Shown here: piece after piece, positions 1-60,769 of the stretch
Position numbering within the stretch: the first letter of the stretch is position 1
Layout of the letters: every line of letters begins with the position of its first letter
Source: Dudresnaya verticillata
Taxonomy: Eukaryota
Reading direction: 5' to 3'
Assembly: GCA_977862235.1 (NCBI GenBank)
Contig: OZ374565.1
Location: forward strand, 1,550,001-1,614,000
DNA length: 64,000 nucleotides
Notes under the pieces: model-generated
Told to the model about the DNA's origin: nothing
Database searches by the model: none
The model's input: only the letters and a program-made list of their open reading frames with translations
Position numbers and translations under genes: made by a program

Positions 1-2035
1 TGCTGAATAGCTTCAGCGGCGATTGCGGGCTATGTTGCTCTGCATAATTCTTCAGCGCCAGTAGGAGTAGCTTTCGCCATGATTTTCTTCCTTTTATCTT
101 GATTCTGAGTTTTTTTGGGACAGAACATAGGGGGGTCACGTCGAGCGGAAGTCCACAATTGTCCCATCTTGTAAGATGGGACTCAATGCCTTGGTCAGGG
201 GTTGCTGTACATAGCAACCCCTATCCAAAGCATTGCGTTTCGTATCATCTCAGCCCCAACAACGCTATCGACGTTAAAACAATTCACAACTTCATCATGC
301 CACTCATTGTGTGTGGCCCTCACACTCTTACTACAACACGGTGGGTATTGCCCTGGGTGTGACTGCAATGAAAGTTGGAGTACTGCAATTACTAACTGCT
401 TGAATTGCAAAGGTAACCCCCCATGACCCAGTACAATGGCTGTACCTCTGCCGCTGTCTTCCTTCGTGTCATTCTCAGCAAGTACTCATGTTGGAAGCGG
501 TCCACATGATGATATCTTCACGTCGTCCCCTATCCTCGTTTCAGGTATCCCAGACGCTCGCCCCATGGAAACATCGTGATGCTCTGGTTCTACGTCGACG
601 GTCTTTTACAGAAAGACAACCTTTTAGACGCCCTTCACTCACAAGGTAACCCCTCAGCTTGCTGCACAGTTCTCTCTCAGCGTGCATCATCTACTATGGC
701 AATAACTACAGACAAGACGGGTTCAACCCCACACAGAAAGTTTCGTTTACTACCCCTCACATCCAAACCCACTCATGCCTCTGATTCAGTATCTTCCACC
801 GTCCAATCCAATGGCACCGCCCAGCCCAGCAACCCTAACACATCCCGAGCTCCCCTCATCACCCGCTCCCAACCTGCCCGGCTCTCTCCATCATATCGCG
901 TGCCCATCCCATGAGCTGCTCCCGGGGCCATAACGTTGTATCCAGCTCAGCCAGGGCAACTCCGCGCGTCTCGATGACTTCAGCACGAAGAGCCCTGAGT
1001 TCTTGTAATAGGCGTTCCGGAGCAGTGTCGGAAGGTGATATTTTGTCACCGGGTCACGGTCGGGTCCGTGATTTCCTTCACATATACTTCGACGTCGCCA
1101 CTGGCAAGCTTAACGAAATTTCGTTACCCTCCGCTCCAACCGTGTCGGTGCGCTGACCTGTTGATCAACAACCCTCGGGTCGAGTCAACTTCGCAAGCTC
1201 TTCTAGGAGGTACAAAATGAGGCGTTTAATAACCTCATACATCCTGTCCGCTAGCATCGTGGTTAACAATAGCGTCCGAAATCCCAGGACCCTGCTCCCC
1301 TGTCGCTTCAGGATTGAGACCATTCTGCATGCTTAATAAACGCTGCATGTATTACCGAAGGTACTCGGTCATCAGGAAGTGCCGGCACGCCGGTGAGACA
1401 TTTTTCGGAAGGTGGCGACATTTGGCAGCTTACTACAATATTTCGTAGACCATACACACAGCCACAGCTGAATGGGCTCTGCGTCATGCTCGCGTCGTGA
1501 TGCTTGAATGGGTCTGAATAAAGTTGGCCGGCATAAGATGAGCTCCGACATCAAGGACCACCAGCCCAACCGTTCTCTCCTCAGAAACTCGGCGCTGGGA
1601 TTCTGGAGACTTATTACGGTTCTCACGATATCAATTATTTCTCAGTATCCGTTGCGCCCATGATAAATGTGTCTCCTGTATGACCAGTTTCCAGTACCCT
1701 ATAGGGCTATAGCAGCATCATCCTTCGGCGTGAAGTGACTGTAGTCCTTCAGTACTTGGTCACCCCATGACACCAAGCCTTGACTGCATATTCATCGGCT
1801 TCGATGGATATTTATGGTCGTTCCTTATTGACGATGCGCCCTGTATTTTGAAAAATTCCATACCAAGCTTTCGGACAGGAGTCACAAAGGTCGACCTGGG
1901 TCTGCTCCTGAGCACATTGCCTTGTACACCATGGGGCTTAATGCGTTTTGCGCACAGCTCGTATCGTGATGCCTGCGCCTCACGTTTAGTAACGTTGGCG
2001 AGGATATGACTACATCCAGCGCGGGGGCCGGGCAT
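1..2035 (-). pseudogene. Decayed coding region of unknown function (several stop-broken minus-strand reading frames)
   Basis: Minus-strand fragments 1760..2035, 1372..1626 and 195..410, plus stop-interrupted protein-like stretches between them; no family motif recognised. Confidence 0.25.
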
Positions 2036-3031
2036 TAACGTGAGACCGGTACCAGGAAGGGCAGCGGAGTGCTGCGGTGGAGATATGACCTGCGGCGGGC
2101 GTCATATTTATGTTGATTAGCGGTTAACCGCAGAACCTTGAACGGGCGAATCCACAACTAACAAGTTGTAATCTCTCTTGAGTCAGAAGCTCAAAACTGA
2201 GACGTATTTGCACCGCCGCTACGTAGAAACACGACGTGCTCAACACCACGCGGAATGTCGCCCTTAATACCCTTCACATCCAAAAATCAGTAACACCTCT
2301 GATTCAGAACGTGTACCGTCCACTCCACTGGGACCTCCCACCATCCCATAAGCTGGTTCCACGCGAATGCAGTTACTCATCAAGACCATACCGGTGTATG
2401 ATAGCAGTACACTGGAAACAAATGGAACATGTCCAGGGTTGACACAGGTTCTGATTGGCACAGACGGTGGCGTATTAGTCAATCATCACTGCTCTAGACC
2501 TCCTCAAATAGGATGTGTGCGCGGTGGGGGATAAGCGCCACGACTTCCAACTTTCGCTCTGGCATCACTTGAGATATGCCTGAATTCCTAGATCCAGAGT
2601 GGCCAGTCTACTAAAACCTCAAGCCATGACCGCGATCTGCATCGGAGCAAACGCCTCCACCACGCGTCTCAAGATCATCCCCACGTGCTGTGCCGACTGC
2701 GAACTCATCAGTGAGTCCGATTCCGGATTCCTACTGACTTGTTCGCTCTGTTCTCGGTATTCACGTAACCGTATCTTCCAGCGACGGAGGGGTATCCCGA
2801 GGGGTACCCATATTCTCAGTGTCTGCAGTTGCATCTGCAGCGTCACCACGCCTTCGAGTTGGGTACCACCTACCCAATACAGTTATTTTACGGCTGGGAG
2901 ATATCGACACCTCCTCCATTCCACTCCGCAAGACTACTGCCCGGCAACTCTTAGGTGCACGCATTCCACTAGCAACGACGAGATTCAAACCGTGGAACAT
3001 CGATATATCACCCCGCATTAACACAAGTGAG

Positions 3032-5128
3032 ATGGGTCGCGCTCGGGAGAATGTGCAGAGTGGCAAGCCCAAAGTTGTCACTGCGGACATAAGAAACGCT
3101 CCAACGACTGTGAGGTCCCATCCTACGCCTTGCAGTCTGCGTAGAGCGAGCACATGCAGGAAGGACTCGAACATAATCGGGAAATAATGGCTACCGTCAA
3201 GTCTCCCGGTTCTGATTCCGTCGAACAGCGCGATAGGCAACATGTACAAGCGAGGAGTGTCGTACTTATGATGGATGGAAAGGAGGTAGGCACGGCTGAG
3301 CCACTGAGGCCGTCACCACCCGAAGAGGGGGATGACACGGGAGCTTTCAAGGTGAGGATGTATGGTCGTTCGCTGAAGGAGTTGCAAGGGAAGGGCGAGA
3401 CATGGGTAGTCATATTCAATGTCAAAGTTTAGAAAGACCATCTTCAAAGTCGTTACAAGTACAAGTACCCAGGACTGGAGCCCCCCCCCCCGCCCACTCT
3501 TTCTGGACTCAATTTGGAATTCATGTTTGGGACAGGGAGCAGATAACGAATGGGAAGAGAAAGCAAACGGAAGAGGAAACTACAGGGGGTGCGCAAGGGA
3601 ATATACCTGTCAAGTCGAAACTGACAAGTAATATGGGAAGTGATGGCCGTGTTGCTCGAAGGGTGCTTCCATCGCGGAAAGGGAGGCCTGGTCTACTCCA
3701 GCGCCTTGCTACAACGATAGGGATGGGAACTAAAATACCTGCTCCCCATTCTGAATCTCCGAAACGGTCGTTACAGGTGAATAGAACCAGTACAGACTCA
3801 GTGGCTGAGGCACTTCATGGTGAAGGGATCGAGCAAACTAAGGAAAGAGCGCACGCCTTCGCCTGTCCCGGAACTGCCCTTACTCGTCTACACCCCTGAG
3901 CGACAAGCTCCCATGTGCCGTCGTCCATACGCATTGGATGCTGGAAATAATGGCGACAAGAGGAGTCGCAACGCCTCGGATGAAGTCGAATTGTGTACCA
4001 CAAGGAGGGTCGAGTCACCAAAAAATGATAGCAATGACGATAGTGTGCGTCTTGACGATAATCACACACCCGACGCTGACGAGTCGCCAGACTGGACGCC
4101 AACGGAGACCAGAGAAGTTGATGAAGAGGCTAATAATGGTGCCCTGGAAGCTTCGTGGGATAAGCCCAAGCGCCAATACAGGTATGTCAATCGCCCAGAA
4201 GGAGCGCTTTCAGGGTCAATAATGCAGGCGAAGAGGCGGAGGGTTTTGGAAACGTTGGAGAGTCAGGACATGTCCGGTATCTACTGCTGTAAGATGAAAC
4301 AGTGTTTCGCCACTATTAAGCCTGTTTATGTCATAGCCGAGTCGCGCAAAGTCATGGCGCAGAACGGGGCCGAGAGAAAAAGCTACCTCGCAGGGCTTCT
4401 TGAGCACAACTCCAACATGTACTTTTTAGCGGTCGTCCTGTCTGCTATACATTCCTGGAGAGGGCGTTCGGCTTTTCGAAAGACCTTTAGTCAGTGGTGA
4501 AGGGGACAAATCTCATCGTGAAAGGAAAGGTAGAGGGCTCGCTGTCACGTCTTCCTCTACTGAGCAGCTGGAGGTCATCGTTTCATTTCTGGAGCGGCCT
4601 TGCTGAAGTCTCTGGAGACTCGCAACCGGACAAGCAAGAGACTCATCTTCCGTTCTATTAGAAACTCGCAGTTTACAACATGTTTAAGAAAGAACATGAC
4701 GCTCTGTATTCGAGGCGAGAGACGCCATCTCAAAGCTACTTTTACAGCATCTGGATTCGATACTGCCCACAAATCAAGGTACGGCGCACGCATAGGTTTG
4801 CGAAATGCCCTGAATGCGAACATATCAAAGACTTGCTGACAAAGGCCGCCGCAGACCTTCCTAGCACGGAAGCGATTCGTGAGCGTCGGTTACGATATGT
4901 CAAAGCGATCATGAAGGAGAGGCAGAGTATCGCAAGAAATGCGAAATGGCATCTATGTACCTCAAGAGCTACTGCTATGCAATAATCGATGGTGCTGATC
5001 ATTCCGTGTTCGGATTTCCTCACTTCCATGTCAAGCGGAAGGATATCCGCGGGCATGCCTTGAAGCCGAAAGTTGTTGGTGTCCTGGAACACGGTCAAAC
5101 TGCAAACCTCCGCCTATTCACTATGACC
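3032..5128 (+). pseudogene. Sola-like (DUF7869-type) DDE DNA transposase, frameshifted and 3'-truncated, with an extra N-terminal domain
   Basis: Consecutive fragments 3154..3432, 3402..3899, 3817..4500, 4680..4985 and 4946..~5128 give CC-x4-C, 'PSQSYFYSIWIRYCPQIKVRRTHRFAKCPECEH' and 'IIDGADHSVFGFPHF...KVVGVLEHG', the layout of Sola/DUF7869 transposases. Homology stops abruptly at ~5128. Confidence 0.7.
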
Positions 5129-8100
5129 GGTTGGCTTCATGCACTCCCACATGCAACTTGGACTGCACAAATCCAGTCGCAGCCAGAGCCTCAACACCTC
5201 GTTCCGATGACTCCACAACACCAAAGCTTTCCTCGGCAACATGAGTCTGATCTGAGTCATCCGCAGCAGATTCTCCAACAACGTTGTCATTCTTTGAAAC
5301 TTGCGATTCAGTGCTGCGAGGCATGACTGCAACGTCGTCAGTAGCCCCATCCACATCCTTCATCCTAGTGACACCATCTACAGCAGCACCATTTGTCGTT
5401 GTATCCTGCGCACCACCTTCCTCCATCTTACGGGCATCTATTTCTTCCTCTTCTACAGCAGTATCGTCCGCAATAACATCCTCAGCAGAAGCATCATCCG
5501 AGTACGTTGTGTCGGTGCAGAGGATATCCGTTATAGCGGTACTAACGACAACATCATGTCGAGTAGTGCCACTGGCAACAGCTTCATCCACAGCATTGGT
5601 ATCCGAATTGGCTTCTCTAACATTTGTTTCACACCCAGCAGCTTCATGTTGGGAAGCTTTGCCTTCATCAATCCCATCTGACGTACTCCCAGCTTGTGAT
5701 TCTTTTCAGAAGCCGCGAAAAAACCCAGCTCTTCGTCATTATCCTCTGCAGTGGCACCATTCCGAGAACAGTCTTTGGCCGCAGCCAAACTCGCCGCTGC
5801 TTCATCTGCAGAAGCACAGTCTACTGCAACGTCGGCGACATCTGTAGCAGCTGCCACTCCAGAATTAGTTACGATAGTGTTGGTTATAGTATTGGCCATA
5901 GGTTTACCTGCTGCAGCTTCAAGCACAGCAGCATCGCCCTCTCCAATGCGCAATTCAGCAACAGTGTGTGCAGTATCGCTTTCAATCGCCTTATCCACTT
6001 CAACTTGAGTTCCAGAATCATTATCCTCAGAACTGGTGGTGTTCGTCGTATCAGCTACGTTCTGCATAACAACAATAGTAAAAACGTCATCCACAGCTGG
6101 TTCCTCCGGAGAGGCGTCATCAGCGCTGGACTCCCTCGCAATAACTATCTCCGTAGCGTTTTCGTCCTCTGCATATTCACCCACTGCGACTGCATCTTCA
6201 TCGCCTTCATCAGCAATTACTTCGCCAGCAGAGGCCCCATCTGCAGTACAGGTATCCACAACAGAAGCACCCACAAAAGCAGTCTCCGCAATATTGCTGA
6301 TCGACTTGCCTTTGCGAATATTCTCATCGTCCGCAGAAATTGCTGGCAATGAAACGTTGAGAATAGCACTATCCCTCGCAAAAGAAATTTTCGCAGCAGC
6401 TTCAGCACAACTCACCTCCTCATCTAGTGCATCCACAGTATCATCTGTTGAAAGAGAAACAGTATCTGCACCACCAGAAACGATACCTGCAGGAGTTAGT
6501 TCCGTACTAGCAGTGTCTGTAGAAACATTTTCTACACGATCTTCAACTGCTAGAGGGTTATCGTCATCAAATTGAGGCGTAAGACTTCTATCGGCGGTTT
6601 CGTCACCCTGAAAATGGTCATTCACTTGAGTATCCTCCAGAGGAGCGCTTTCAGATAGAACGCTTTCAGCAGGAAGGACAACCGGGAGAGGGCCCCAAGA
6701 AGGATCTTCTTCCACAGGAAGAGCGCCGCTCAAAAGACTGACATCCTCAGGAATATCGTCTGCACAATTGTCCTTTCCAAAATAGTGTCTTTTGGAGTGG
6801 CGTCATCGACTATGGGGTCTTCTGCAGTAGCCTCTTCCACATAAGCGATTGCTGCAATTACCTCTTCTTCAGCAGTCTCATGCATTACGATGTGTTCTAC
6901 AGCCGCATCTTCTACAATAGTGATATCCACGATTGCATCTTCTGCAATAGCGATATCCACGATTGCCTCTTCTTCATAAGCATCGCCCACTTTGGCGTGT
7001 TCTGCAACAGAGTTGAAAACAATAGCGTCTCCTGGAGGAATTTGTAAACTCTGCGTTTTGCTCCTCGGCGTTGTTGTAAAAACTGTGCTCTTCCCCCTCC
7101 CCTTCCTACGGTTGCTGAGAGAGGAGCAGCTTTTATTGTCATGTTTGTTCCTTCTGCCAGCTCCAGAAAGATGGAGCTATACACAGAACAGTCATCTTCA
7201 TTCGTTCTATCAGCTCCAGTACGTTGGAGCTGGACACAGAAAAGTCACCCTCATTCCTCCTGTCAGCTCCAGAACGTTGGAGCTATACACAGAACAGCCA
7301 TCCTAATTCCTCCCGTCAGCTCCAGAACGTTGGAGCTAGACATGGAATAGATAACTTAATACTCTAACGGCATAACGTACTGTGCCACACGTACAAATTT
7401 GAACAGTACTACAAAAACAAATATCCCCCGTCTGAGCTTGAAGAACAAGTCCGTGTTGGCGGCTTAAAGTTGTCGGTAGTCTAAATCTCTCTACAAATGT
7501 TATAAACAATAGGGTCTTGTTCTGCAACGTCATCAAACATAGCTTCCTCTAAGGAAGCGTTCATAACAATATTTTCTCCTGCAGCAGCATCGTCCACAAC
7601 AGTATTTTCTCTTGTAGTGTCATCCAATGTTGAGTCTTCTATCGAAACATAGAATCGAGCAGCGTCTGCTGCAACAGCAGAGTCGACAATAGCGCCTCCT
7701 ACGCCAGTGTTACTCACAATTGCGTCTTCTACAGCAGCTCCATCCATATTATCATTGTCAACAAGAATGTCTTTCGCAACTTCCACAGAGACGTCAGCCA
7801 CATCAAAACCTTCCGCGGCGGAGGCGTTCAAAACAGAGCGTTCTAAAATATCGGCTTCTTTAGAAGCACCTTGGACAGAATCATGGTACATAGAAGAGTG
7901 TTCACGCGCAGCGTCCTCAGCACTAGCCCCCTGAACGATAGTGTCGCTCGACGTGTCGTTTTCAGTAGCAGTGTGACCAGAAGCGGTATCACCTGTAATG
8001 TCGTCTTCGGCATTGTAGTCTTCTGCGGTAGAGGTAGCGCATTCTACGAAGGCGTCTCCCTCCGTAGCGTCTTCTACGGAGGCGTCTTCCACGCCAGAGT

Positions 8101-9640
8101 CTCCATAAGTACGGTCTTCTACAACATATTCGTACACATTGTCACCTTCCATAGTAACTACAGCAGCGACTTTCACAGAGGCCTTTGCAGTATCGCCTTG
8201 CACATCCGTAGTGTCATCTCCGACAATAACGGTAACAATAGTTGAGTTTCATACAGCTTGATTATGCACATTGCCTTCACAAGCAGAAGCGTTACCAACT
8301 GCGGTCTTATCCACATGGTCATTCGCAGCAGAGTCATTCGCAGCAACGTCGCCCTCGGGAGCATCAGTTTCGACTGGAATATTCGTTCATGCGACTTCCT
8401 TAACAACATCTTCCGCAGTCATGTTGCTAGTATCATCATCAGCTCCTGCTGTCTCATCCGTAAAAGCAGCGCTCGAAGCAACTCCTTTTTCACCCACATC
8501 TGCTGCAATCTCATCACTAATCGCAGTACCTTCTAAAGCAGTATCATCTACGAGACCGACACTCGTAGCAGGGTAGTTAATAGTACCTTCAGCAGTTCTG
8601 TCCACAGTAGTTTCATCTACAGAAACAGATAGAGCGGTCGCACCCGCAACCGTGCCGTCGCTGACACCCTTTGCTCCCATTTCGCTCGTAGAACCGGCCA
8701 TTGTATTGCTGTTATCATCCATACCTTTGCCACTTACAGCAATCCCATGTGATGCAGAAACGTCAAAAGACGAGTCGTGCGCAGCAGCGCCATCGTCGAG
8801 AAACTCCGTCTTCATGGATGCAATCGTGCCTGCGGCTTCCTTGGCAACATTGCCCGTAGTACTGTCGCTAGACCCATCATCGTCTATTGCCATGTCACCC
8901 GTAACAGAGATGCTCGTAGCAACTCCGTCTTCACGCAAATCTGCTGCCATCGCGCCACTCGAAGCACTATCTGCTAAGTATCCTGCTGATGCAGTATCAT
9001 TATGCAGTATCATCTACGAGACCGGTACTCATAACAGCACCATCCATAGAAACTCCTCCAACAACTGTGTTCACAGCAGTGTCATCTACGGAAGAAGACG
9101 CAGCTGTTTCACGCGTAGTCGTGTTGTCGCTGACCTCCTCTGCTACCGTTTCGCCCTCACCAACAACAGTTGCATTGCTTTCAACCTCCTTAGCACTGCC
9201 ACTCGCAGCAGCACCCTCTGATTCGACGACATCAGTAGCAGCGTCATTCGCAGCAGCGTCTTCCTCGGGAACATCTGCTGCCGTAGAGACATTCGTGGCT
9301 GTGGTTCCCTTATCAACATCTTCCCCAGTCGTAACGCTAGGACCAGCATCGGCAATTGCTGTGTCACTCGTAACAGTAGCGCTCGTAGCAGCTTCGTCTT
9401 CAGGCGCTTCTGCAGCAACCTCGTCACTCTTGGCAGCATCTTCCGCAGCAGTATCATCTGCAAGGCCGTTACTCGTAGCAGCACAATCCACAGAAACAAC
9501 CCCACCATCTGTGCTCACAGCAGTATCATTCAAAGTCACAGCAGGGGTTTCAGCGGAATGGTTCGTTGACAAGTTTGCAGCGACTCGCGGTTGGATTGCA
9601 ACTGTTGTCGACGTCCACAGTGCTCCTGGCTTGCGATATT
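5121..9640 (-). pseudogene. Very long Asp/Glu/Ala/Thr/Val-rich low-complexity protein, broken into fragments
   Basis: ORFs 9000..9572, 8387..9013, 7481..8203, 6730..6990, 5531..6733 and 5121..5591 share the same acidic composition and recurring motifs (EDA.VED, GLVDDTA). Confidence 0.65.
7158..7342. repeat. 53-bp minisatellite, 3.5 units, each with an AGCTCCA-N6-TGGAGCT hairpin
   Basis: Units start at 7158, 7211, 7264 and 7317. Confidence 0.9.
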
Positions 9641-10440
9641 CTCGCTCAAGCTGTCATCAACGTTGCGTGAGACGATTCGGGCGTAGTGGAAGAGCGTTCC
9701 AAGACGGTCTGCAGCGATGGGTCTCTAGAGAAGATAGCGGTACACGTCAGTTGGTTCTTGCGTCTAGATTCGAAGAAGAGCGTCACGGCTGAACAGCACC
9801 AGGCGGCTAAAGGCGCTACGCGCCGTTTGCGCAGTGCAGTATGCTTGGAGTTAGGAGTATCAGCATTCTCAGAGACATCGGCAAGGGAGTGGTTTGGGGA
9901 GTACGTCCGTTGACCTCTCGCACGCCGTGCGGGTGCGTCGCGAGGCAGTAGCTAATTTCTTTCCTCGTGTCTGGGAGCTATCGACGAATATATATTCATA
10001 ATAGCTCCTCGGCACTGCCGAGATCGAAACGCGACTTTGTTAGGTTTCACGATTCCGCTTCCTGAATAGCTATGTAGCAAACTAGATTATATCCAAGAAA
10101 ATATCTACTTTTTAGGTGTTTCATTCCGACCAAAAGGATGAGCTATGTAGCTCCCACGGAGCTGCAAATCAAAACCCTATGAAATAGATGTTTTATTTCG
10201 CGCATCTCAACATATATTGGCCGATATGTATATTCGTTTCTAGCTTTTTGAGATCTGCTTCCTCGTTTGCTACTGATGTCAACGTGTTCCCGAGGTTCCG
10301 GCCAACCTCGTCGTGCACCCATCTTCTGCTCTGGGATGCCCTCTCTGCCGCCACCCCCCGTGCGCAGTAGCGGTCAGCCACTACCCATGTCGCCCTCTAG
10401 TGCGGCCACCTCTTGAAATGTTCCAGGCGCTGGCCGATCG

Positions 10441-10717
10441 TGCACGCAGTCTGACTACAAGCCGTGTTCATTGACTACGCACTCCTCGTTGTACAGCGTA
10501 CGGCGTACGTACGCCTGTGCATAGCGGCACCCCGTCGCCACAGGCCGCTCATGCACGCAGTCGGCGCACCTCATCACCGCAAGCCGCTTGTGCACGCAGT
10601 CGGAGCACCTCGTCGCCGCAAGCCGCTCATGCACGCAGTCGGCGCACCTCATCGCCGCAGGCCGCTCGTGCACGCAGTCGAACTACAAGCCGTGTTCATT
10701 GACTATGCGCTCCTCGC
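10441..10717. repeat. 39-bp tandem repeat (~4 units) bracketed by ~48-bp direct repeats
   Basis: TGCACGCAGTCGGCGCACCTCATCGCCGCAGGCCGCTC-type units; TGCACGCAGTC..ACTACAAGCCGTGTTCATTGACTA at 10441 and 10669. Confidence 0.85.
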
Positions 10718-11111
10718 TCAACGGCAGGGCGTGGCTGTACCCTAACGCTATTGGCCTCTCGTGCAATACAAAAATGTTATTCAAAGATGTCCCATCTTCG
10801 GGTAAAGGACCTCACCGCAGCCTCCCACTCTCTTACCATATTGGCGCGGGTTGTACGACTAAGCAGCGAGGTTGATGCTGACGAGAGAAAAGCAGTAGTG
10901 GACGCTCCGCTGATTGCAGTGTCTAATGAAATGGATGTTGCAACATGTTGCGCTGCAGCGCGAATTGAGAAGTTCAACCGGACTTTACTGTATCAGGAGA
11001 GAATGGGAACTGGAAGAGAAAGAAGGCACGTTGTGCAGCGTTTCGACTGTTCACGTCATCGCAAAACATGTTGGTGATCAATGCATATCGTTTACAAGAA
11101 TTGCGCAAAGC

Positions 11112-11693
11112 CTATTCCGAAAGCGGGTCTTCTACATTGCGTTGTCCTTCCTCCCTAAGTGCACGTACAGAACGATGCAAGTCCTGTACATTTCGAAGAG
11201 TATTGCGAAGCGCCCTTATTATCTTTCTTCCGAATTCTTGAATGAGGTAGCGAACGAAATTGGATGCCCTTTGCACTTCGACCTCCAGGTCACCGACTAC
11301 GGCCCGCAGATGGGCGACCTGTGCACGTAGTCGTATGACCTCGAGCTGTGCATCGCCAACCGTTGGGTTAAGGGGCAGTGGCATTTCGGGTGTTGGTAGA
11401 ACTGTTCAGAAGTTGTGTTGAAGCTGGTTCTCAATATCCGAATCCAACTCTGGGTCGTCTCCGCCCAGGACATGTATCCCAAGACGCCGTTCGATAGTTT
11501 GCAGTCTTCTTCTCGCAGCCCTCGCGATTTGCACTGCCTGAACCACAACTCTCGACAAGCGGTCCATGACGTTGGTGGTTACCTCACTCATTCTCTGCCG
11601 AGCACTTTCCGCTCGAGTTCCTAGCGCGTCTACCTCCACTCAAAGAGCCTGTACCTCGGAGAGAAGTGCTTCTGTATCCACGTCTGTTGCCAT
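11112..11693 (-). pseudogene. Small coiled-coil protein with two in-frame TGA stops
   Basis: ATG at 11693, ORF 11406..11639 and ORF 11112..11384 are all in one frame; heptad-rich (LEVIRLRAQVAHLRAVVGDLEVEV). Confidence 0.45.
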
Positions 11694-11831
11694 GTCGGCC
11701 TCATGTCTATTGTTTCGCGGTGATGCAATGGGTATGGAAATGAGATCGGCTACCTACCGAACGAAGCGCACTCTTCACTGGCGAAAAATGTGCGTTCATT
11801 GCACTGCAAATGTGCTGGCGTTTCCAGACGA

Positions 11832-14800
11832 CTACGACTCGGGTTGGAAAGGTTCCATCTCATTCAGATCCCACTTAAAGAATGCACTTAAATCCCTGAG
11901 CAGGGCCGGTTTTTCCTCCGGGCCCTTGAAGGTGTATTTGTATGGCTTATCAGCAAACATCTCGAACACATCGAATGAGAACACCGCTACGAGATGTTTC
12001 CCAGGTTCGCTAAACTGCTGGAAATAATGAGCATGTATGGTATCCTTAACCCCAGTGCCGTTTTCAGTCCGCTGAATTGACGCCTCCCTAACTCTCTGCT
12101 GTCCGTATTTGAGCCAAACTCTGTCGCCCCCTTTCAGTATGGCCTCACTACACTTGACAGAAGAGTCCTGAGACAAGAATTTGTCTTTCGCTGCTGCTGC
12201 GTTTTGCACGACACATGCAGTACTGCAACCGTGTTTGCCATCCTTCCCCACTTCTGTGACATCCTCAGTGTGCGATGGTACTCCGCACTCAGCTGGCTGC
12301 GCCTTCTTCTGTTTTTCCTGCGTCTCGGAAAGATCAGTTGGACGCTTATGTCGAAGTAAAACCCTAGATTTGCAACTCCGTTTCTCGTTAGCGAGGCGTT
12401 GTAGTCTCTCCCTGCCCAGTCTGAACGTCCCAGCTTTGCTTTCAACAAGAGTGCACTTCCTATGCATCCTGAGACACGCAGTTCCTGTAGTCATCGTTTC
12501 GGCGTGTGTGTCCAGAACAGACCCCCCATCAGGGCAAAACGTGGTAAGGACCTCTGTGAGCATGTCCGGGTTCTTTTCCTCTGTAAGAAGCGGGGCTCTA
12601 GTCGTTCCAGGCTTAAAAAGTTTATCCCTCGCGGCGGGAACAGACGTCATCACAGCGAGTTTCCTTCTCTCGCGACATGGAACGTAGTGGTACGGACTTG
12701 ACAAGTCGGGGGAGAATGATCCCTTCGATAATCTTTTTCGCCTGCCAAATACTGCAATCTCAGCACCATTTTGCAGCCCCCTCCTGCGACTGATCTGAAT
12801 AGTAGCGGTGTCCTTGCATATCACGAACGGGTACTGTGGGCAATCGAAGCTCTTATCCGTAAGAGCTCTTCTAAATGTGGGGAAGTTCATAAAACTGCAA
12901 TAGATGAAGACCAACCCACCCTCCTTCACTACTCGTCCGCAGAACTCACACAAACGTTTGATGTCCTCTTCAGTAAAGCTGTTATCGTATTCAGTACCAA
13001 CGTCTGACATACCCTTGGGTGTCCCGTACGGTGGGTCTGCAAGGACAAGGTCAAATAAAGGACTGCACTCGTTTCGGATTGACTGGTCGTACTCCCGCCA
13101 CCGCATCTGATGGGTGGTTATTCCGCACTTGGAGATACCGTCACGGTCTCCCTCAAGAGACGATGTGTTCAATCTCTCCGATTGTCGAGTAGATGCCGCT
13201 GAGCGAATAGAGAGCCTGGAAACATTCTCTCCTCGCTGATCAACCTGTTCTGCTGTACCGGTCTCACCATTCTGGCTATCTTCATTGCCATGCACCTTGA
13301 CCGGCGTGGTCATATCCAGTATCTGATTCACGACGCCGGTAGTTATTTCAAGACTTTCCTGCTCTTCTTCAGGTGCCATCCCGTCCATTCCATCCTTTTC
13401 CTCGGCAATGCCGCGATCAACCACGCTATCGGGGCCAATATTAGAAATTGAAACCGGATGTTTATCCTTCTGGCCAGTTCCGGGTGTGGATTCCCCCTGG
13501 GACTCGACCTCTGTGCGGAACTGGTATCTATAGTTCTTTTCTTTCCGTGGAGCTTCCTGAGGGCATTCTCTTCGATATGCATCCAGCAAAGGGTTTAAAA
13601 GATCCTGATCGTTGCTGAAGTTCGCGCGTACCTCATGGTCCAACTTCGTGGAGTTTAAAATGTTTTGCCTAATGACTTGCATTCCTTCCGGCCAAGTTTG
13701 AGTCTCCAACAATCGTTCGAATTTGCGCGCTTCCTTCATTGCTTCCTTCGCTTTCTGAAACTGCTCCAGGGTCTGATAGCTTGTCACAGACCGGAAGTTC
13801 TAAAGTCGGTGCACTTCACGAAATCTGTCCAATGTAGCTATCTGTACTTCCACCCCGTCCGCCATCTTGCTCGCATTCATGAAAGCGGCTGCAGACTTGA
13901 GCGATGTAATATGGATGAATTTACGGTACACTCGGCAGTCGACGCTTCGCATTGCCCCATCTTTGTCCATCGACGTGCCTTCTCTGTCGCAGTTTATCTT
14001 GGCAGCCAGGTCCGGCCTTTCCTCATTCGTATTAATTCCAATTGCCTCAATATCCTTCTGATCCAGACGCAAGACAGTCTGAGCAGTCTGTTTAATGGTG
14101 TTATTGCGTTACAGCTTCGAGCCATCATATGCCTCGGCAATTTTGGGAGCACTGGGTTGCTCCCTGTCTTGGATTGCAACCTGTCAGCCTCCTGTCGCAA
14201 GCCATGGATTAGATAGTAAAAGGTAGTTTCGATGAAATAACCGTGTGCATGTTTCTCATTCTGATGACGGGCAAGCTGCCGTAGTTCACAGATGCTGTGA
14301 CCGTCCTTCAGTAAGGTGACAGGTCAAGCAAACGATTGCCACACTGTGGGAAATTCCACCATTAATTCCGATATGACACAATGTTGATGTACTCCATCGA
14401 CAATTCCGAACCACTTGGCACGAGTATTTGCCTCTACCAACGCATCCTCGTCAGAACACAACTTTCCTCCTTCTGTTCTGGACCTTTTGAAATATGCTAC
14501 AACCAAACCCCTCAGTGTTCCGTTTAATTCGACAACGATTGGGGAGTCGGGCCCAGCGACGTAGCCAACAACTCCCTCCTTGACGTGAGAAGAATGTAGG
14601 TGAAAACGAGCTTTGAGTCGCTCCACACCGGATCGCACCACAGGCCTTATCTGTGTCAATGGAATGCAAGCTCTATGATCGATTGTAATGTTGACGGAGC
14701 CATCCATGACATCAGGGAACAAAGCCTTCCCGCTACTAATGGAGAAGGCTATTTCTGCTTCTGCAGCGGAGCTGTCAGCCCCTTTTCCTGTTCTCTTTCT

Positions 14801-14857
14801 CGACATCTCGGACAATCTCCCCATCGAACGCGGCGTTGACTTTCGAAGGTATTTCAC
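11832..14857 (-). pseudogene. ParB/Srx-like domain + beta-class N6-adenine/N4-cytosine DNA methyltransferase + C-terminal transposase-shared domain
   Basis: ORF 11832..13787 has catalytic motif IV 'FDLVLADPPYG' preceding 'EKNPDML..VL..FCPDGGSVLDTHAETMTTGTAC' (motifs X/I), i.e. beta order. ORF 14324..14857 has 'IRPVVRSGVERLKARF...FGIVDGVHQ' (ParB-like). The pieces join across three stops and one frameshift (~14150). Confidence 0.8.
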
Positions 14858-15450
14858 AGTTATGTTGTGTGTGTTTCCGAATTTTGGCAGACCTTATCGC
14901 GGAATGCTGACAGTCTTGATAACCACTAGCGAGTCACGAGCATATGCTCGTACATGCGGAGAACCTTCTGTTCACTTCGTTACCGTCGAGGCTCAGATGG
15001 CATTCATTTCGGACAGTGGATGGCGTATTGGTACCGCACTGTACATGCCTATTCATTTCTTGCGGTTCCAGTATCAAAATGGTTTGACCGCCTCGTGCAC
15101 CTTGCACTTTTCAACCCGGGAATACCACAGATCAGTGCGTAAAGTGCTGAGTTCAGAATGGGGCGACTATCCGAAAGGGCAGACCTCCCATGCAGACATT
15201 CTGATTTTACCTCCCTTCCTAATGACGGTCCGCCTGAATTCGTAGGTGCAGAAAAACAATCATGCCGCTTTTGCCTCCACGTAACAACTTAACATTCTGC
15301 TTCCTCAGAAACAACTGGATGACATTTCTATCTGTCGAACAGTCCATTGATTCTGATTCACGTTTGCCCTAGAAGCTCAGGGCGGAGAAAAATTGGGGAT
15401 GCCTATACGGCATGCATCTACCACGTGGAGCCGGCATTGGAAGTCTAAAC

Positions 15451-15865
15451 TGTTGTGAAACATAGGGGGGAGAAGCGTTTCTTCTCCTGTAGATGTAACT
15501 GGTTAGGGCAGAATCCTGCCAGAGACGAACGTGCGCACAAGCGCGTGTGGAGTCCCACGGTTGACTGTTTACTGAGTAGTTATTGAGTGTGTGTGTGTGT
15601 TCGAGTATGTGAACACTGCATCACGCTAGCCCTTAAATACTACGGAGAACTAAAGGGATAGAACTACGAACAGTATGTGGTGTAAGTTGCGGGATAATTG
15701 CAACTAACACTCTCAGCTAGAGAACGACACGCCCGCTTTGTTCCACGAACAATTGCCACGCCCTAGTCATCTATTGCGGACGTGGACAAACTAATTCGTA
15801 CGGGTTGACGAATGACATCGAAATGCTATAAGGGTGGCTTAAGCACAAGCACAGTTCCGTTAACA
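15451..15865 (-). repeat. 3' LTR of copia element E (415 bp)
   Basis: TGTT...AACA termini; short purine tract GGGGTA just upstream on the minus strand; follows the RNase H stop codon. No partner LTR in the window. Confidence 0.7.
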
Positions 15866-15905
15866 TACCCCATTGCTTGATGTCTGAGGATAACCAAAGG
15901 AACTA

Positions 15906-17045
15906 CTACTCTTTTGGGTGAATGACCCACTGCTCCAGTTGAGTAGTAATCTGATATGTCTGAAGAAGATCTTTGAGGGATGTCTTATTGCCCTTGACCT
16001 TTGTTAAGGAGTCTGCAATGTTGTCCTTGGATTCAATAAGTGCAACATTGGATATTGTCCCTTCCTTATATGCCTCTCGGGCTGCCGATATATCTACCAT
16101 TAATCGTTTTTCGGTGGTATATCTTGACTTTGTAATCACATTGAAAAGCTGTTCACTATCCGTGAACATGAAAATGGGTATATTGCGATTAAGAATCCTC
16201 ATAAGATCATGCCGAATTAGAAAACTGCAGTCAAAACCATCTGTAAAAGCCAATGTTTCTCCTGCCATACTAGAGCGTGTTACTCTGCGACATTTGTAAG
16301 AGGAAAAATGAAGTACGGAGCACATATCGGACTTGTCGGGCAATAAAATGATGAAACCAAGCTGTGAGTAATCATCCTCTGTATTGCGATGTGATGCATC
16401 TGTGAAAACCAGCATCCTGAGGCCGTCTTGATCGAGCTTCTGGAAATGTAGTTGCAGGTTTTCAGTTGACCGGAGATGCTTAATAACGGCATTGAGGTCA
16501 TTCACTTCGCTTTGAGAGAAATTATTCTCTGTAACACGTGCAAGAAATGATACTGCACATGCTATGTCAGGGCGTGTTTGTACAATCCACGCTACTTTTG
16601 CCCTTGTTGACCGAAACTGAGGAAATGATGCATCCCTTTTGAGAAATCGTAATCTCTTGAAGTACTGTGTTTGGGAAATTCTTCTCTCATTCTGATCGCT
16701 TACGTCACAATTCATTCCAATGTATGTGAACTTTTCTGTATCGGAAAGTTTGATATCAAACTCGGATGAGAAGATACTTTTCAGTAATCGCTTCTGCTCT
16801 TTCGTGCCTGCCTGCAATAATTCATCTACGTAAGATCATGAAAGTGCAAGTAACCTTCTCCCTATCCTTTTAAAGAATAATGTGAAGTCACCTGTTGCCT
16901 GTTACATGCGACGTTTGTCGGTATGGAAACTAGAATTTGTTTCGCACCAATAATCGCCACTTTCAGTTAGTCCATATAGAGGCATGATGACTTGAAGTAG
17001 CTCATCTTTGTTCAGTTCTATACATTCCGGATTGGTGAATATCTT
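15906..17045 (-). mobile_element. pol: Ty1/copia element E remnant: RT C-terminal half + RNase H
   Basis: 'PLYGLTESGDYW', 'TRPDIACAV', 'FTDASH...SQLG', 'FTDSEQL', 'NIADSLTK'. Confidence 0.92.
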
Positions 17046-17341
17046 CCACTCCGATGAGACTGGTTCAATTACCTTAGCGGAAAGCATGCGATCGATCTCT
17101 GTCTTCTCGAGATCTCGCTGCTTATGTCCGGCACGGTATGGGGCTTGATATACTGGCTTCGCTCCGGGAGTTAACTCGATGCGGTGCTTGGCAGCTGTAA
17201 TGTTGCCAAGATCGCCACTCCACATCGACTTATATTCCTCGAGTAGGGTTAAAATCCGTTTACGGAGCGATGCTTCTTCTGTGCCGATCTGGACTTGATC
17301 CTTCCAGTCGGTAGTATTTGTATTTTCCGTTACGGGTTTGC

Positions 17342-18253
17342 TTATTTCCTTGTCGTGAGGGGAGATGCTGCTGGCCTTTTCGGAGGTAGGGTTAGAATTA
17401 AATGATTGAATAATTCCTCCCCCTCCTTAAATGGAGGTATACCGTCAACGGTAAAAGTAGCAGAAGGGGCAGCAGTAGCGAGGCCCACGACAGTAGATTT
17501 GGGCAACCGTACTGGCTTATTAGAAACATTAGAGACCCAGATCCGAAACGGTATGTTAGGTACAACATCCATAATACCATTAGCCATTAACGTGAGGTGT
17601 TTAAAAGCCGGCTTAGGATGATTTTGTAGAAAGCATAACCCACCCGTGGGGGTATTAACCGTTACGGTGGTTTGAGTCATAGGGGGAATAAGGGTAGATT
17701 TTGCTAAACGAATTTTCTGAGAAACCGTAGCGGTAGAAAGAGGTGAGGGCTATAGGGTGGCAGTGGTTCCCGTCTTCGGAATTTTGGCTTGACCAACAAG
17801 GGATACCGGTGGGTAATGATGAAAAACAACTTTCCGTAACGGCGGGAGGATGGCCTTCACGTAGCGGTCGATGAAGGTAGTTCCCAAAATACAGGGAGCC
17901 GCCAAGTTCGCGACCACTAGAAAATGAACGCGAGCACGGAGCTCTCCGATACGGACGAAAAGTTGGATCTGACCAAGAGGGCGTACAGCGCGATTAGACG
18001 CATCCCATAATGGAGGACTGGCTGCTGGGCGTATGAGTGGGAGCCATTGGCGCGGAAGGCGCCTGGCACTAATGAGATTGGGCCCAGCGCCAGAGTCCAA
18101 GACGGAGATTAAAGGAAGCATCACGCTATCTGTCCGTCCCACGGTAATTTGCATCTTGTAATTTTGATATTGCATAAAGCAGATAGTATCATTGGTCTGA
18201 TAAGCCAATGGGAGTTCCGTAACGGTATCTCGCCGACCCCCTGGCGGGTCCAC
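17342..18253 (-). pseudogene. pol: Aspartic protease + linker of A1, one internal stop (17750)
   Basis: 'VLDSGAGPNLI', 'ILGTTF'; continuous in copy A2. Confidence 0.9.
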
Positions 18254-18297
18254 ACTCGCGAGAGGTGGAACGCCGTGAGGCGGGGATGGCGGCGCCC

Positions 18298-20778
18298 TTA
18301 CGCAGCCCCCCTTGAGTTTTCCGAATTCAAGGTTGCACCAGTCGGATCCGCCTCCAGGGGCTCGCGCAATTCTGCGAGTTCCACTCCGTCATGGTCCTCC
18401 ACCGATAGTATCGGGGCATTCCGTTGCGGAGGGGGCGTATGCGGTCTGCCCCGATTCCCTTGCGGATTCGAACCGGTTCCTACTACGAACCTGCGACCTA
18501 CAGGGTAGTGCTTCTGGAAGTTGCGCTCGCGCTCTTCCATAAGCCTAACCCGATCGGAGTCATGTATCCATGGGCAAACAACGTGCTCTGGAGAAAGGCG
18601 GATGCAACAGTTACCACTTCCATAAAGGCGTCGGACCCGAGGATCCGACTCATCCCGTAGCGGAGGTGCTGGTTGCTGCCGTCCTCGCCCATCGTGGGCA
18701 TTATTTCCGAAATGGTGACTCGGCTGCTGTTGGGGGCCAGGAGCCGGGCGAGATCCACCATAGGGGGGACCTTGCGCGCGTGGCATCCTGGGCGGAGTAG
18801 GGTGGCCGTTTTGAGGGGGCGAGGAGTACGAGGTAGAAAAGGTAACCCCCGTGCTCGTACCCGTAGCGGCACCGTGGCCTCCCTCGACGGCTAGCACTTG
18901 ATTATCCGTAGCGCAAAGATTCCCTTGCGACTCATAGTGTACATCCGATACGGAATCCAGCAACAACACCTTAGACGGGCGCGCTTTAGTGCGCCCATCA
19001 AAGACGTGAGCCGGAACGGTTTGGCGTCGAGCTGCCCGATGGGACTGACCCAGGCCAGTCGCATAGCGAGTGATGGCCTGGTAATCCGACTGGGAATGCG
19101 TCGCTAGATAATTTCTCATCTGTTGACAAGTACCCGGTAGGAGTCCTTCAACGAACAGTGACTTCAATGCCCGATCGGAAAATACTGTACCGCAACGGAG
19201 AGCCTTGGCCCAAAGCTGGTTCGAGAACTGCTCTTCCGTCATGGCGGATGTTTGCCTGAAGTTGCTGACATCCGTATAGGCTTCAGCAATCACTTCCTCC
19301 GTAGCGTAGGTTCTCAATAAAAAGTTCACCACCTCGGAATATGAGCGGAGCATCTCGGACTGCTCCACGTCAACCGCCATGGTACCTCCAGCAAGCCTAG
19401 CCTGTAGAAGGGCTTCGGCCTGTCCTTTAAGGAAAAACTGGAAGCACCAGACGGCAACCCCTTCGGCGATGCCGTTGATGTTACAACCGTCACGGAACTT
19501 AGCGAGAAATCCCAAGACGGTAATAGGGTCCGTCCCATCGAATGTATGGGACGACATCTGGACGTCGAGTTTCTTCCGTATACGGCTCATGTTCTGTGAG
19601 AACTTAGAGCCGTAGGTTTTACTCCTCTTATCCAATCGGTAGGTGCGGTAATCCAGCGCCTTGACAAACTTGTCATGTAGCGGCCGGATTACCTTAACCT
19701 TTCCGGATTTGGCACCGTGTTTTCTGGCGCGGTGCCTATTCTCTCTATCCGTTACGGAAGAACTCTCTGATTCTGAATCCGTAGAGGTAGATGAGTCATG
19801 CCTTTTTTCGCGTTTCCGCGATCTTCGGTTTCTCCTCTTGCGGCGGCGGTGTTGGCTATCCTCTGAGCTGCTCTCATTGGATTCCATACCGGATTGGTGG
19901 CGTCGTCGCTGGGTGTGGTCGCCCATGTGCGACCGACGGGGAGGGTCAGAGCGGGAGTGTCGGGCATCTCGTTTATGCCGACCTCGACTGGCCCTCCGAC
20001 TCGGATGGGGTGAGCTGGACGCATCGCTGAGATGGTCGCTGCCTCCACCTGATCGAACCGGAACGGTATAGCGCTCCTGCTGATAGCGCCCTGACGTAGG
20101 CACATCTACGTGTCCAGGAGAATACCGTAACGGTGGCGGAGTGTGTGTTGGTCCCGTAGGGGCTTGTTGATGTTGAGAATCCGTTACGGGAGCCGGTGGC
20201 AGTGGCCCAGAGGGTACTGTGCCCGGCGGCAATCCCATAACGGGGGGTTGTTGCGGCTGCTGCGTTCTTCCCTCGACCGGGAAGTCATTCCGTAACGGTG
20301 GTTGCTCAGTAAAAGCTTCCGTAGCGGGAGGCCTTGCCATGCCGGGAACAATCTGGCTCTCGAGTTCGGCGGCCACCTTTTCCTGTAGGATCAAAGCTTG
20401 CACTATCCGAGGAAGGAGCTGCTCCAGGTAGGAATTAACCAAAGACGGAACAGTTTCCGAGAGGGATATCTCCACCTCTTTTACCATTCCAGGTTGTACT
20501 TCCAATCGGAGATGCTCTAACACCCGAGGAAGGACCTCCGACAGAACCCAGTGGACCCGATGGGATTCCGGCTTGGGTTGCGGAGCTGCCTTCTTCGAGG
20601 CGTCTGATCCGACACGGGAACGGGGAGCTTTACCAGCAGCACCCTTTAGGATGTCTTCTGGGTTCTCCACTCCGGGACGGATTTCACCTCCGTCACTGCG
20701 CAGACTGCGCGCAGCGGGGGTAGTGTCACCCGCTTTAGGTTCCGTAACGGGAGGGTCTGCGTGTTCTTCGTTCTGCAT
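18298..20778 (-). CDS. gag: Gag of gypsy A1 (826 aa, uninterrupted)
   Basis: Capsid-like 'FDGTDPITVLGFLAKF...FRQTSAMTEEQF...FVEGL'; degenerate zinc knuckle. Confidence 0.85.
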   Translation of the reverse strand: MQNEEHADPPVTEPKAGDTTPAARSLRSDGGEIRPGVENPEDILKGAAGKAPRSRVGSDASKKAAPQPKPESHRVHWVLSEVLPRVLEHLRLEVQPGMVKEVEISLSETVPSLVNSYLEQLLPRIVQALILQEKVAAELESQIVPGMARPPATEAFTEQPPLRNDFPVEGRTQQPQQPPVMGLPPGTVPSGPLPPAPVTDSQHQQAPTGPTHTPPPLRYSPGHVDVPTSGRYQQERYTVPVRSGGGSDHLSDASSSPHPSRRASRGRHKRDARHSRSDPPRRSHMGDHTQRRRHQSGMESNESSSEDSQHRRRKRRNRRSRKREKRHDSSTSTDSESESSSVTDRENRHRARKHGAKSGKVKVIRPLHDKFVKALDYRTYRLDKRSKTYGSKFSQNMSRIRKKLDVQMSSHTFDGTDPITVLGFLAKFRDGCNINGIAEGVAVWCFQFFLKGQAEALLQARLAGGTMAVDVEQSEMLRSYSEVVNFLLRTYATEEVIAEAYTDVSNFRQTSAMTEEQFSNQLWAKALRCGTVFSDRALKSLFVEGLLPGTCQQMRNYLATHSQSDYQAITRYATGLGQSHRAARRQTVPAHVFDGRTKARPSKVLLLDSVSDVHYESQGNLCATDNQVLAVEGGHGAATGTSTGVTFSTSYSSPPQNGHPTPPRMPRAQGPPYGGSRPAPGPQQQPSHHFGNNAHDGRGRQQPAPPLRDESDPRVRRLYGSGNCCIRLSPEHVVCPWIHDSDRVRLMEERERNFQKHYPVGRRFVVGTGSNPQGNRGRPHTPPPQRNAPILSVEDHDGVELAELREPLEADPTGATLNSENSRGAA

Positions 20779-20802
20779 GATACCTTAACGGAACACAACG
20801 GT

Positions 20803-20964
20803 TGTTCTTGCTTGTCTATCCAATATTCCGTAACGGGTTGTTAGTACAGCCGAATTCCTACCGTAGCGGATTTCGACGGCTGTTCTTGCTTGTCCATCCA
20901 ATATTCCGTAACGGGTTGTCGGTACAGCCGAATTCCTAGCGTAGCGGATTTCGACGGCTGTTTC
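20803..20964. repeat. 78-bp tandem duplication in the A1 5' leader
   Basis: Units start at 20803 and 20881; single copy in A2. Confidence 0.9.
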
Positions 20965-21004
20965 TTCCAACCGTGACGGTGTTCTAGGTCGGGAGACCAA
21001 AAGA

Positions 21005-21679
21005 TGTGGTGTAGTGAAAACCCACGAACTCCGAGACGGACAGCTGGCCTGACTTTCCTTAACGGACGAGAGCAACACTACCTCCACGGGGTGGTAGAGC
21101 AGTTCGCACCGAGACGGGAGAACAGCGAGCGGCTAACCGAGATGGAAATTGGGAAGCAACAGACAAGGGGGTGGTACAAGTGCCGGGACGGACTCCGTAA
21201 AGGTGGTGGTGGTAGACCGCAACAGGCTCGGCGCGGGGAAAACCGTAAAGGATTGGGCTACTGTTGCTTACCCGTTTACCTTAGGAGCCGCTGCGGTGCC
21301 GCCCTGATATACAAGTCAGGGTGGCACCGAGAGGTCCGGTCCGTGGGGGCCAGACCCTAGTGGTCTGGTCCTTTGGTGGAATCGGCCCTACTGGTCCCAA
21401 TCTCCGACACGGACATGCGCAGCATTCTCATTGGCTGGCGCACTACTCTACATACTGTACAGATACTCACTAAAAATAAAGAATAAACACTACAAATACT
21501 CCGATATGGTTGGTGCGCTTCACTGTTGTACAGCAATGCGTACCGGCGTACAGCAATGCGTACGACATCCGACACGGTTACACGTTGCCAGATCATCAGC
21601 GTGGCGTATTGCCACATCACCCGTTACGGTTGGCTCGCCGTCGGCGTGCCGCGTGCGCGCCATGGCTCACTTCACCACA
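21005..21679 (-). repeat. 5' LTR of A1 (675 bp)
   Basis: TGTGGTG...CACCACA termini; PBS at 20982..20999. Confidence 0.93.
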
Positions 21680-33770: not shown

Positions 33771-34239
33771 GACGTTGAGTAATCACACGCCACTGGCGGA
33801 GTTCATACGATACGTCAATGACGGTTCTGGGACTTCGAAGTCGAGTCAACTACGCCAAAGGCGGAAGCACACAAAACACACGTCAACGACGCTAGACTGA
33901 ACGACGCCGAAGGCGGACCGCAAAGAAACGCCCTAGGCGGTAAGCGTACACACGCGTGCAAAGATGCGACGTCAACGACGGGGTTTCACGCACGCCACTG
34001 GCGAAGTTGGTCAACGACACGTCTTCGACGGGGAATCTTCCTACGCCAAGGGCGGGGAAAACTGCACGTGCGTCTTTGACGGGGCTCAACCAACGCCAAG
34101 GGCGGGCAAACGCAGACGCGAAGACGCGGGTGACCGACACGATCGGCACTGGAAGAGACGTAGGCGCGGGAAAGCAGGCAGGCTGAAGCAGGTTGACGTG
34201 TTTGCGTTTTCGGAGGGGGTCGTGTAGTGCCGGGGGGGT

Positions 34240-34895: not shown

Positions 34896-35043
34896 TCTTT
34901 TGGTCTCCCGACCTAGAACACCGTCACGGTTGGAAGAAACAGCTGTCGAAATCCGCTACAGTAGGAATTCGGCTGTACCGACAACCCGTTACGGAATATT
35001 GGATAGACAAGCAAGAACAACCGTTGTGTTCCGTTGAGGTATC

Positions 35044-37519: not shown

Positions 37520-37563
37520 GGGCGCCGCCATCCCCGCCTCACGGCGTTCCACCTCTCGCGAGT

Positions 37564-43781: not shown

Positions 43782-43893
43782 GATTGAAAATTCATTAAAA
43801 ATTGCTGAGGTCAGCTGCTATTATGGCGCTTTGTAATTTTGCCACTGTGCAGTTTTGTTACTGTTTGTAACAACTCCTCCCCTCTTAATTGTC

Positions 43894-60569: not shown

Positions 60570-60769
60570 GGCTCCATGGCCGGCGGCTGAGCAAGCCTTA
60601 GCGGAAGGTTGCGGTCAGATGTACGATGCTAGAGCAGAGTATGACTGGCGTCCAGCAAGCGGAAGGTGAAGTTTGATTTCTTGGTGTTTTGTTTAGAGTG
60701 GTCCTGCGCGGGCAATCAGCGACTGCCACCAACGCTTCGATCACGAAAAGAAATGGAAGCCTTTACTTG

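Follow-up and report, generated by a model that had tools for sequence, protein, structure and literature searches.

A decayed ParB-like and methyltransferase gene near a transposase remnant in the red alga Dudresnaya verticillata, and its family of putative transposon accessory genes

Features of the Locus

The window considered here is a 64,000-nucleotide stretch (64 kb) of a Dudresnaya verticillata contig (GCA_977862235.1, OZ374565.1, positions 1,550,001 to 1,614,000), and it consists mostly of Gypsy, Copia and tyrosine-recombinase element DNA. Embedded in it is a broken gene with a predicted ParB-like part, an HTH-like part and a methyltransferase (MTase) domain, accompanied by a transposase remnant and tandem arrays. 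The features are as follows:

3247..3510, plus strand: another remnant of the C-terminal domain of the family, immediately 5' of the transposase (HMM E 4.7e-16)
4168..5128, plus strand: decayed, 3'-truncated DUF7869-type DDE-like transposase (tblastn of the transposase of locus L001, E 2.5e-40, three frames)
7148..7342, no strand: tandem array of 3.7 copies of a 53-bp unit with a palindrome in each unit (TRF; arms 7 bp, spacer 6 bp)
10527..10680, no strand: tandem array of 3.9 copies of a 39-bp unit, flanked by two direct repeats of about 70 bp, 1.2 kb downstream of the gene
11832..14806, minus strand: ParB-HTH-methyltransferase pseudogene of about 990 codons, interrupted by three stops and, near 14166, by a frameshift
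11850..12137, minus strand: small beta-rich C-terminal domain found in many family members (HMM from 28 relatives, E 8e-22)
12426..13052, minus strand: beta-class N6/N4 amino-methyltransferase domain, DPPY intact and motif I degraded (PF01555, E 1.3e-10)
13803..14240 (approximate), minus strand: predicted HTH-like and helical region 3' of the ParB domain, with the frameshift and one stop inside
14248..14720 (limits approximate), minus strand: predicted ParB/sulfiredoxin-fold domain, from a model of the relative P0012

A preliminary description had placed the gene in an algal nuclear genome, and its surroundings agree with this. GC content across the gene is 0.49–0.51, the same as in the flanks, no gene-specific depletion of CpG or other dinucleotides was found, and the neighbours are Gypsy and Copia elements and genes of red-algal type. 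Among these genes, the intact glycosyltransferase-61-like gene at 59004–60614 gave 29 matches, and the three that are named to species come from Chondrus crispus, Agarophyton chilense and Gracilaria domingensis, which makes a florideophyte host likely. Bacterial or phage DNA that was mis-assembled into the contig (the chimera that had been named as a possible refutation) or recently transferred would fit with the prokaryotic type of both domains, the PHROG matches of the MTase and the absence of visible introns. It is nonetheless extremely improbable in view of the GC content, the eukaryotic neighbours, the decay of the gene and its nesting within a ParB-type family. Moreover, searches with two N-terminal patterns, which distant relatives could escape, gave 40 viral and 10 prokaryotic matches, none of which was confirmed as a relative.

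State of the Gene

The gene likely starts at an ATG at 14806 and ends with a TAG at 11832–11834. It had been described as a decayed gene of about 1,000 codons, a size that holds well; the upper limit of 14857 given for it is merely where the frame opens. The lesion count and the other coordinates given were right, with in-frame stops at 14324–14326 (TGA), 14109–14111 (TAA) and 13800–13802 (TAG) in addition to the frameshift. The last 655 codons are uninterrupted and form a 655-residue ORF (11835–13799, minus strand). When an intact relative, P0003, was compared by tblastn, its residues 12–998 aligned with the gene in two frames (E 1e-141), and the pseudogene was also matched by the family HMMs in a profile search.

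In the SAM-binding motif I (DxF/YxG), the window copy reads DTHAET, with Glu at the conserved Gly, while its ParB-type motif DGxHR reads DGVHQ, a lesion missing from the preliminary description. The copy deviates at 10 of 68 strongly conserved columns versus one to three in its five closest relatives, and its branch in a quick tree measures 0.87 versus 0.16–0.38. Because both motifs are degraded and the branch is long, and with the stops and frameshift as well, the copy is very likely dead, as had been supposed. It clusters with the five relatives (SH-aLRT 96), all of which keep DPPY, motif I and DGxHR. Since these are motif-complete and the losses are those of the window copy, its ancestor was likely competent in catalysis, and it is the window copy that would since have decayed.

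The Methyltransferase Domain

The uninterrupted ORF matches the PF01555 (N6_N4_Mtase) profile with 42 bits, above the curated cut-off of 26.7, over profile positions 2–215 of 221. On the minus strand, the DPPY of motif IV (13026–13037) is followed by EEKN (12570–12581) and by the degraded motif I, DTHAETMTT (12486–12512), and this placement of motif IV before motif I is the beta order. The profile check bore out the assignment to the beta-class amino-methyltransferases, and the position of DPPY that had been proposed from the letters was right. Motif I has its Gly in 48/56 relatives and its Tyr or Phe in 48/56, and it is intact in the five closest.

The best matches of the family profile and of a structural model are the adenine MTases M1.HpyAVI, M.BceJIV and CcrM, with which the family has in common the fold, the motif order and DPPY. 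It differs from bacterial beta-class enzymes as a long fusion protein of eukaryotes that has additional helical and C-terminal domains, and identity in the fold alignments is only about 18%. The full-length model, built from eight sequences, was poor (pLDDT 55) and served only for the MTase fold search. The accessible part of PMC8885841 assigns DPPY to bacterial N6A enzymes and SPPY, as the usual form, to N4C enzymes. Intact relatives are predicted, and likely, to mark their own element with methyl-adenine (6mA).

That the enzyme instead writes 4mC, or acts on RNA, is quite improbable. Beta-class folds include N4C enzymes, bdelloid N4CMT and PvuII were among the fold matches of the model, and several eukaryotic MTase captures have shifted to RNA (PMC4738411, in the part available); however, the motif is DPPY and not SPPY, the best profile and fold matches are adenine DNA MTases, and the domain is fused to a predicted DNA-binding module.

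The N-Terminal and C-Terminal Parts

The ParB-like segment reported upstream of the MTase domain is upheld by the fold of an intact relative, P0012, but not by a ParB profile match of the window piece itself, which gave none in Pfam or PHROGs. Likewise, a check for ParBc, by which the segment was to have been verified, found no such Pfam match in the window piece or in intact relatives, and the profile matches that intact relatives did give are all weak (DndB, E 0.0005–0.008; a PHROG ParB-like family, E 0.006–0.03). The window piece shares 41% identity with the P0003 N-terminus. It has the conserved Arg and the G-V-x-R box, and its one stop falls at a conserved Trp. In the family, the ParB-box Arg is kept in 55/56 relatives and DGxHR in 21/56, including all five closest. 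The G-x-x-R motif, presumably the nucleotide-binding motif of the ParB/Srx superfamily, is not intact in the window (DGVHQ).

The N-terminal 482 residues of P0012, a relative and not the window copy, were modelled with confidence from a 56-row alignment (pLDDT 86, pTM 0.82). With Foldseek, ranks 1–11 of the model's matches were all ParB, Noc or KorB chains (E 0.012–0.35), with no ParB match at E ≤ 0.001 and a best value of 0.012. With VIA, whose Z-scores here fall within the range that the tool calls common, the order was pNOB8 ParB (Z 8.4, rmsd 4.4, 215 aligned), PadC (Z 7.8, rmsd 2.7, 97 aligned), KorB (Z 6.5, rmsd 2.6, 93 aligned), sulfiredoxin (Srx; Z 6.1, rmsd 3.3, 87 aligned), a serine kinase and Srx again (Z 5.4), followed by HTH-type chains, which match residues ~175–243 at a Z of ~4. 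Each score alone is modest, and it is because of the agreement across the set that a ParB/Srx fold is predicted for the N-terminal part, likely followed by an HTH.

A different lead came from P0013, whose residues 1–410 resemble fungal DUF3723 clusters with an Atlas feature similarity of 0.94–0.95. DUF3723 is a common cargo of the fungal Starship elements. The likeness, a lead only, would hint at a ParB-like module common to giant transposons, and the literature search found no paper linking DUF3723 with ParB. As for the C-terminal domain of about 95 residues, Pfam gave no match, and a suspected likeness to CACTA TnpA-type domains was dropped for want of Pfam support.

A Family of Relatives

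Searched exhaustively with the MTase domain, the representatives of clusters at 50% identity gave 270 matches at E ≤ 0.001, the best 150 of which were listed; smaller word-indexed searches gave four matches with the MTase region and six with the N-terminal region of a relative. The 173 proteins collected, with 10 near-duplicates removed, included 56 near-full-length relatives of the same architecture, each with the full N-terminal region. Because the sample was ordered by similarity to the window copy, it leans towards that copy. In one cluster of 19 members, the 15 listed include three of 1003 residues and several fragments, and such a mixture of whole and fragmentary copies is as expected of a repeat family. 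Intact copies, for which a search among relatives had been advised, do exist: P0013, P0005, P0006, P0003 and P0024 are natural members with complete motifs. Pattern searches of metagenome contigs gave 201 matches, of which seven were confirmed, namely six family members (L001–L006) and one distant solo MTase. The notion of a rare phage-type capture is not supported, given these counts of clusters and relatives, the failure to confirm any of the viral or prokaryotic matches of the two N-terminal patterns and the fact that the architecture was already published.

Eight further long matches without the ParB-type N-terminus formed a branch of their own (support 99), and five of the eight carry a Pfam SET domain. 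SET was absent from the window ORF and from all of the 38 ParB-type relatives that were scanned (0/38), and the SET-type proteins gave no match to the N-terminal profile of the family. In its predicted domains, the SET-type branch matches the published architecture of PAG2. An initial reading of the window gene as PAG2 was rejected on these three grounds, and, judged by its sequences, the ParB type forms its own lineage beside that of PAG2. The quick tree left out four of the 56 relatives, whose MTase part was short or cut, and had only two long-branch outgroups, so that it is silent on the donor and on a common origin with PAG2.

The relatives vary most tellingly in their catalytic motifs. 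Both MTase motifs are kept in only 17/56, which means that the family as a whole does not depend on methylation, and a subclade of 22 rows (SH-aLRT 89) has DPP(Y/F/W) in 0/22. This subclade nevertheless keeps ORFs of 830–1051 residues, the ParB-box Arg in 22/22 and motif I in 15/22, as would be expected if the family mainly served DNA binding or scaffolding, with the ParB-HTH part binding and condensing the element or pairing its ends and the MTase domain being dispensable or a non-catalytic reader. Such a role, the main rival of the reading favoured here, is rather unlikely. The sole relative seen beside an intact transposase, that of L001, itself appears to lack DPPY, and the inactive MTase domains borne by DIRS1 provide a precedent (PMC4738411, in the part available). 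On the other hand, the remaining 30 tree rows, including the five closest relatives, have motif IV in 17/30 and motif I in 26/30 at 30–50% overall identity, and this suggests that catalysis has been under selection in the branch of the window copy.

Linkage to a Transposon

The link to a mobile element that had been proposed is best seen in L001, where the ParB-MTase relative lies head-to-head with an intact 823-residue DUF7869 ORF (PF25273, E 4.9e-46). This arrangement counters the alternative, raised at the same time, of a gene never linked to transposases, and a homolog of that transposase occurs in the window at 4168–5128. The remnant there breaks off soon after the conserved Asp motif that comes first, and its 3' part was not found within the window. 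A transposase was seen in one of the six algal-type loci, the other five contigs being only 1.6–3.6 kb long.

Within the window, the transposase and the ParB-MTase gene are on opposite strands, convergent and 6.7 kb apart, and no element ends or terminal inverted repeats (TIRs) were found with exact seeds over 1–24000 or by sensitive blastn of 1–16100 against the window. Given this distance and orientation, the truncated transposase and the missing TIRs, the two are at most candidates for parts of one element in the window. The remnant at 4168–5128 is a candidate for the carrier of the gene, and the carrier is likely a DUF7869-type DNA transposon and not one of the LTR retroelements of which the window otherwise consists. 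The carrier transposons are probably of Sola1 type, a reading drawn from a parallel in Ectocarpus and from the DUF7869 transposase presumably being that of Sola1. Set against the hallmarks of Sola1 (a Sola1 transposase, TIRs and a 4-bp target duplication), the transposase of the window and of L001 is of DUF7869 type and no TIR was found in the window; the literature search found no paper on DUF7869.

A host-domesticated family of DNA-modifying genes that merely sits among transposons would account for the long, intact ORFs, which are numerous and come from many samples, and for the element ends not found in the window. Yet the window copy is a pseudogene, there are multi-member clusters with fragments, and transposase linkage occurs both in L001 and in the Ectocarpus report (PMC12477816, accessible part), which leaves domestication with little probability.

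Several smaller features lie around the gene and the remnant. A second full ParB-MTase copy at 1500–3500 was considered and rejected, since the full-length family profile matches the C-terminal domain alone; Pfam gave no match in the one frame scanned there, and no ParB or MTase part was found beside the remnant at 3247–3510. Cys-rich stretches occur at 2580–2660 and 2730–2760 (plus strand), upstream of this orphan domain, and the tail of the L003 relative is Cys/His-rich and zinc-finger-like. Long, broken, acidic and repetitive ORFs rich in Ala, Asp, Thr and Val run over 5130–9700 on the minus strand, starting at the end of the transposase remnant; those scanned gave no Pfam match, and the run may be either a cargo gene or a later insertion. 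Directly downstream of the ParB-MTase gene and on the same strand, a decayed frame with a coiled-coil look (11000–11700, minus strand) is a possible second accessory gene.

Repeat Arrays and Palindromes

The array at 7148–7342 lies between the transposase remnant and the ParB-MTase gene. Its palindrome has four exact matches within the array and none elsewhere in the window, even allowing two mismatches. The arms are invariant at 14/14 positions versus 21/39 elsewhere in the unit, in a post hoc comparison (Fisher p 0.002, or 0.011 when three units are used), and of the other pieces of 53 bp in the window, 47/1202 contain a comparable palindrome. L001–L006 showed no tandem palindrome array. The array may be considered a candidate, and no more, for a parS-like binding site. 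Elsewhere, L001 has two adjacent long palindromes (arms of 13 and 16 bp) at 3501–3559, in the stretch that separates the transposase gene from the divergent ParB-MTase gene. Palindromes with 10-bp arms are found at 161–182 and 197–222, and an old direct repeat pairs 707–823 with 2224–2340 (74% over 118 bp). Rfam gave no match over positions 1–17000.

Comparison with Known Systems

Work on the brown alga Ectocarpus has described an element, Sola1-1_Ec32, that bears a gene of about 1,000–1,100 residues with a ParB-like and an N4C/N6A DNA methyltransferase domain on the strand opposite its DNA transposase, and similar proteins were noted for red and green algae (PMC12477816, accessible part). That work suggests that the product binds and modifies the element that carries it, as is proposed here. 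The two differ in host (a brown versus a red alga) and in state, the gene being transcribed there and broken here, and they are likened by description and not by sequence. The opposite-strand transposase has its counterpart in L001; in the window, the 6.7-kb spacing and the missing ends qualify the likeness.

The closest published red-algal genes are PAG2 (PF01555 plus SET) and PAG3 (a ParB-like N-terminus plus a 2OG oxygenase), accessory genes of Plavaka (EnSpm) elements in Bostrychia that are mobile among red-algal transposons (10.1101/2025.02.11.637652, in the part available). Tandem inverted-repeat arrays lie beside PAG3. The family described here combines ParB with the MTase and lacks SET, in contrast to both. 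The literature search found such algal accessory genes in these two reports only, where they are described by domain predictions, and the accessible part of PMC12695648 contained no red-algal 6mA data.

Phage ParB-terminase loci have ParB-linked MTases, and other captures of ParB-linked MTases were listed alongside them (PMC4738411, in the part available), whereas the N-terminal patterns used here confirmed no viral or prokaryotic relative. Bdelloid N4CMT likewise belongs to PF01555, originated in bacteria and is joined to a targeting domain in its eukaryotic host; it has SPPY, writes 4mC, is a host gene and has been shown to be active, in contrast to the DPPY, the ParB fusion, the likely transposon carriage and the predicted activity of the present family (PMC8885841, accessible part).

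The window gene is a new, very likely dead member of a published architecture. As the copy is very likely dead and the architecture known, the finding as first stated is not new. The literature search did not find the ParB type treated as a lineage separate from PAG2, although Supplemental Table 6 of the PAG preprint might already list the family. Neither the long-ORF subclade of 22 members without DPPY nor the four-unit palindrome array at 7148–7342 as a candidate binding site was found described.

Proposed Function

The reading that is favoured, with somewhat better than an even chance, is that the gene is a broken copy of a ParB-MTase accessory gene of large DUF7869 DNA transposons, the intact members of which would bind their own element and methylate its adenines. 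Through their ParB-HTH part, intact members would bind repeated sites in the element, with the HTH conceivably reading a palindromic site such as that of the array at 7148–7342. Bacterial ParB binds nucleotide triphosphate and dimerises or spreads, and the ParB domain here might do the same. The DPPY MTase could then methylate nearby adenines and so mark the element, likely with 6mA. Finally, the mark or the bound protein might shield the element from silencing or license its transposition. The PF01555 match and beta order, the adenine-MTase matches, the ParB-type folds, the near-universal ParB-box Arg, the linkage in L001 and the Ectocarpus parallel speak for this reading; the weak fold scores, the transposase in only one of six loci, the loss of one or both motifs in most relatives and the absence of arrays from L001–L006 count against it.

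A bolder version, which is unlikely as a whole, would have a ParB clamp load at the parS-like array, spread in a nucleotide-dependent manner and lay down a transposon-specific 6mA domain that blocks silencing, with the catalysis-less subclade acting as reader or decoy, in a system distinct from PAG2 whose ParB module is possibly common with fungal DUF3723. If true, the ParB clamp and 6mA domain would make up an epigenetic system of a selfish kind. The interest of the family lies in the quick test that it allows of whether transposons of eukaryotes lay down a DNA mark of their own other than 5mC. For this, the analysis supplies intact motif-complete members, an array that is a candidate for the binding site and, to compare with them, a naturally occurring subclade whose catalytic motifs are degenerate.

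Other Elements in the Window

Further features lie in the remainder of the window. Gypsy copies at 17046–21585 and 34232–43781 are about 97% identical and in opposite orientation; the former is truncated and abuts a Copia remnant, and the LTRs of the latter are 98% identical. A 93-bp direct duplication (99%; 43780–43872 and 54347–54439) brackets a block that contains a Gypsy element with a chromodomain as well as a Copia element. A gene with DNMT1-RFD and bromodomain regions spans two frames at 55974–57196 (plus strand), and a tyrosine-recombinase ORF (PF00589) with neighbouring ORFs at 61298–63900 (minus strand) likely belongs to a DIRS/Ngaro-type element.
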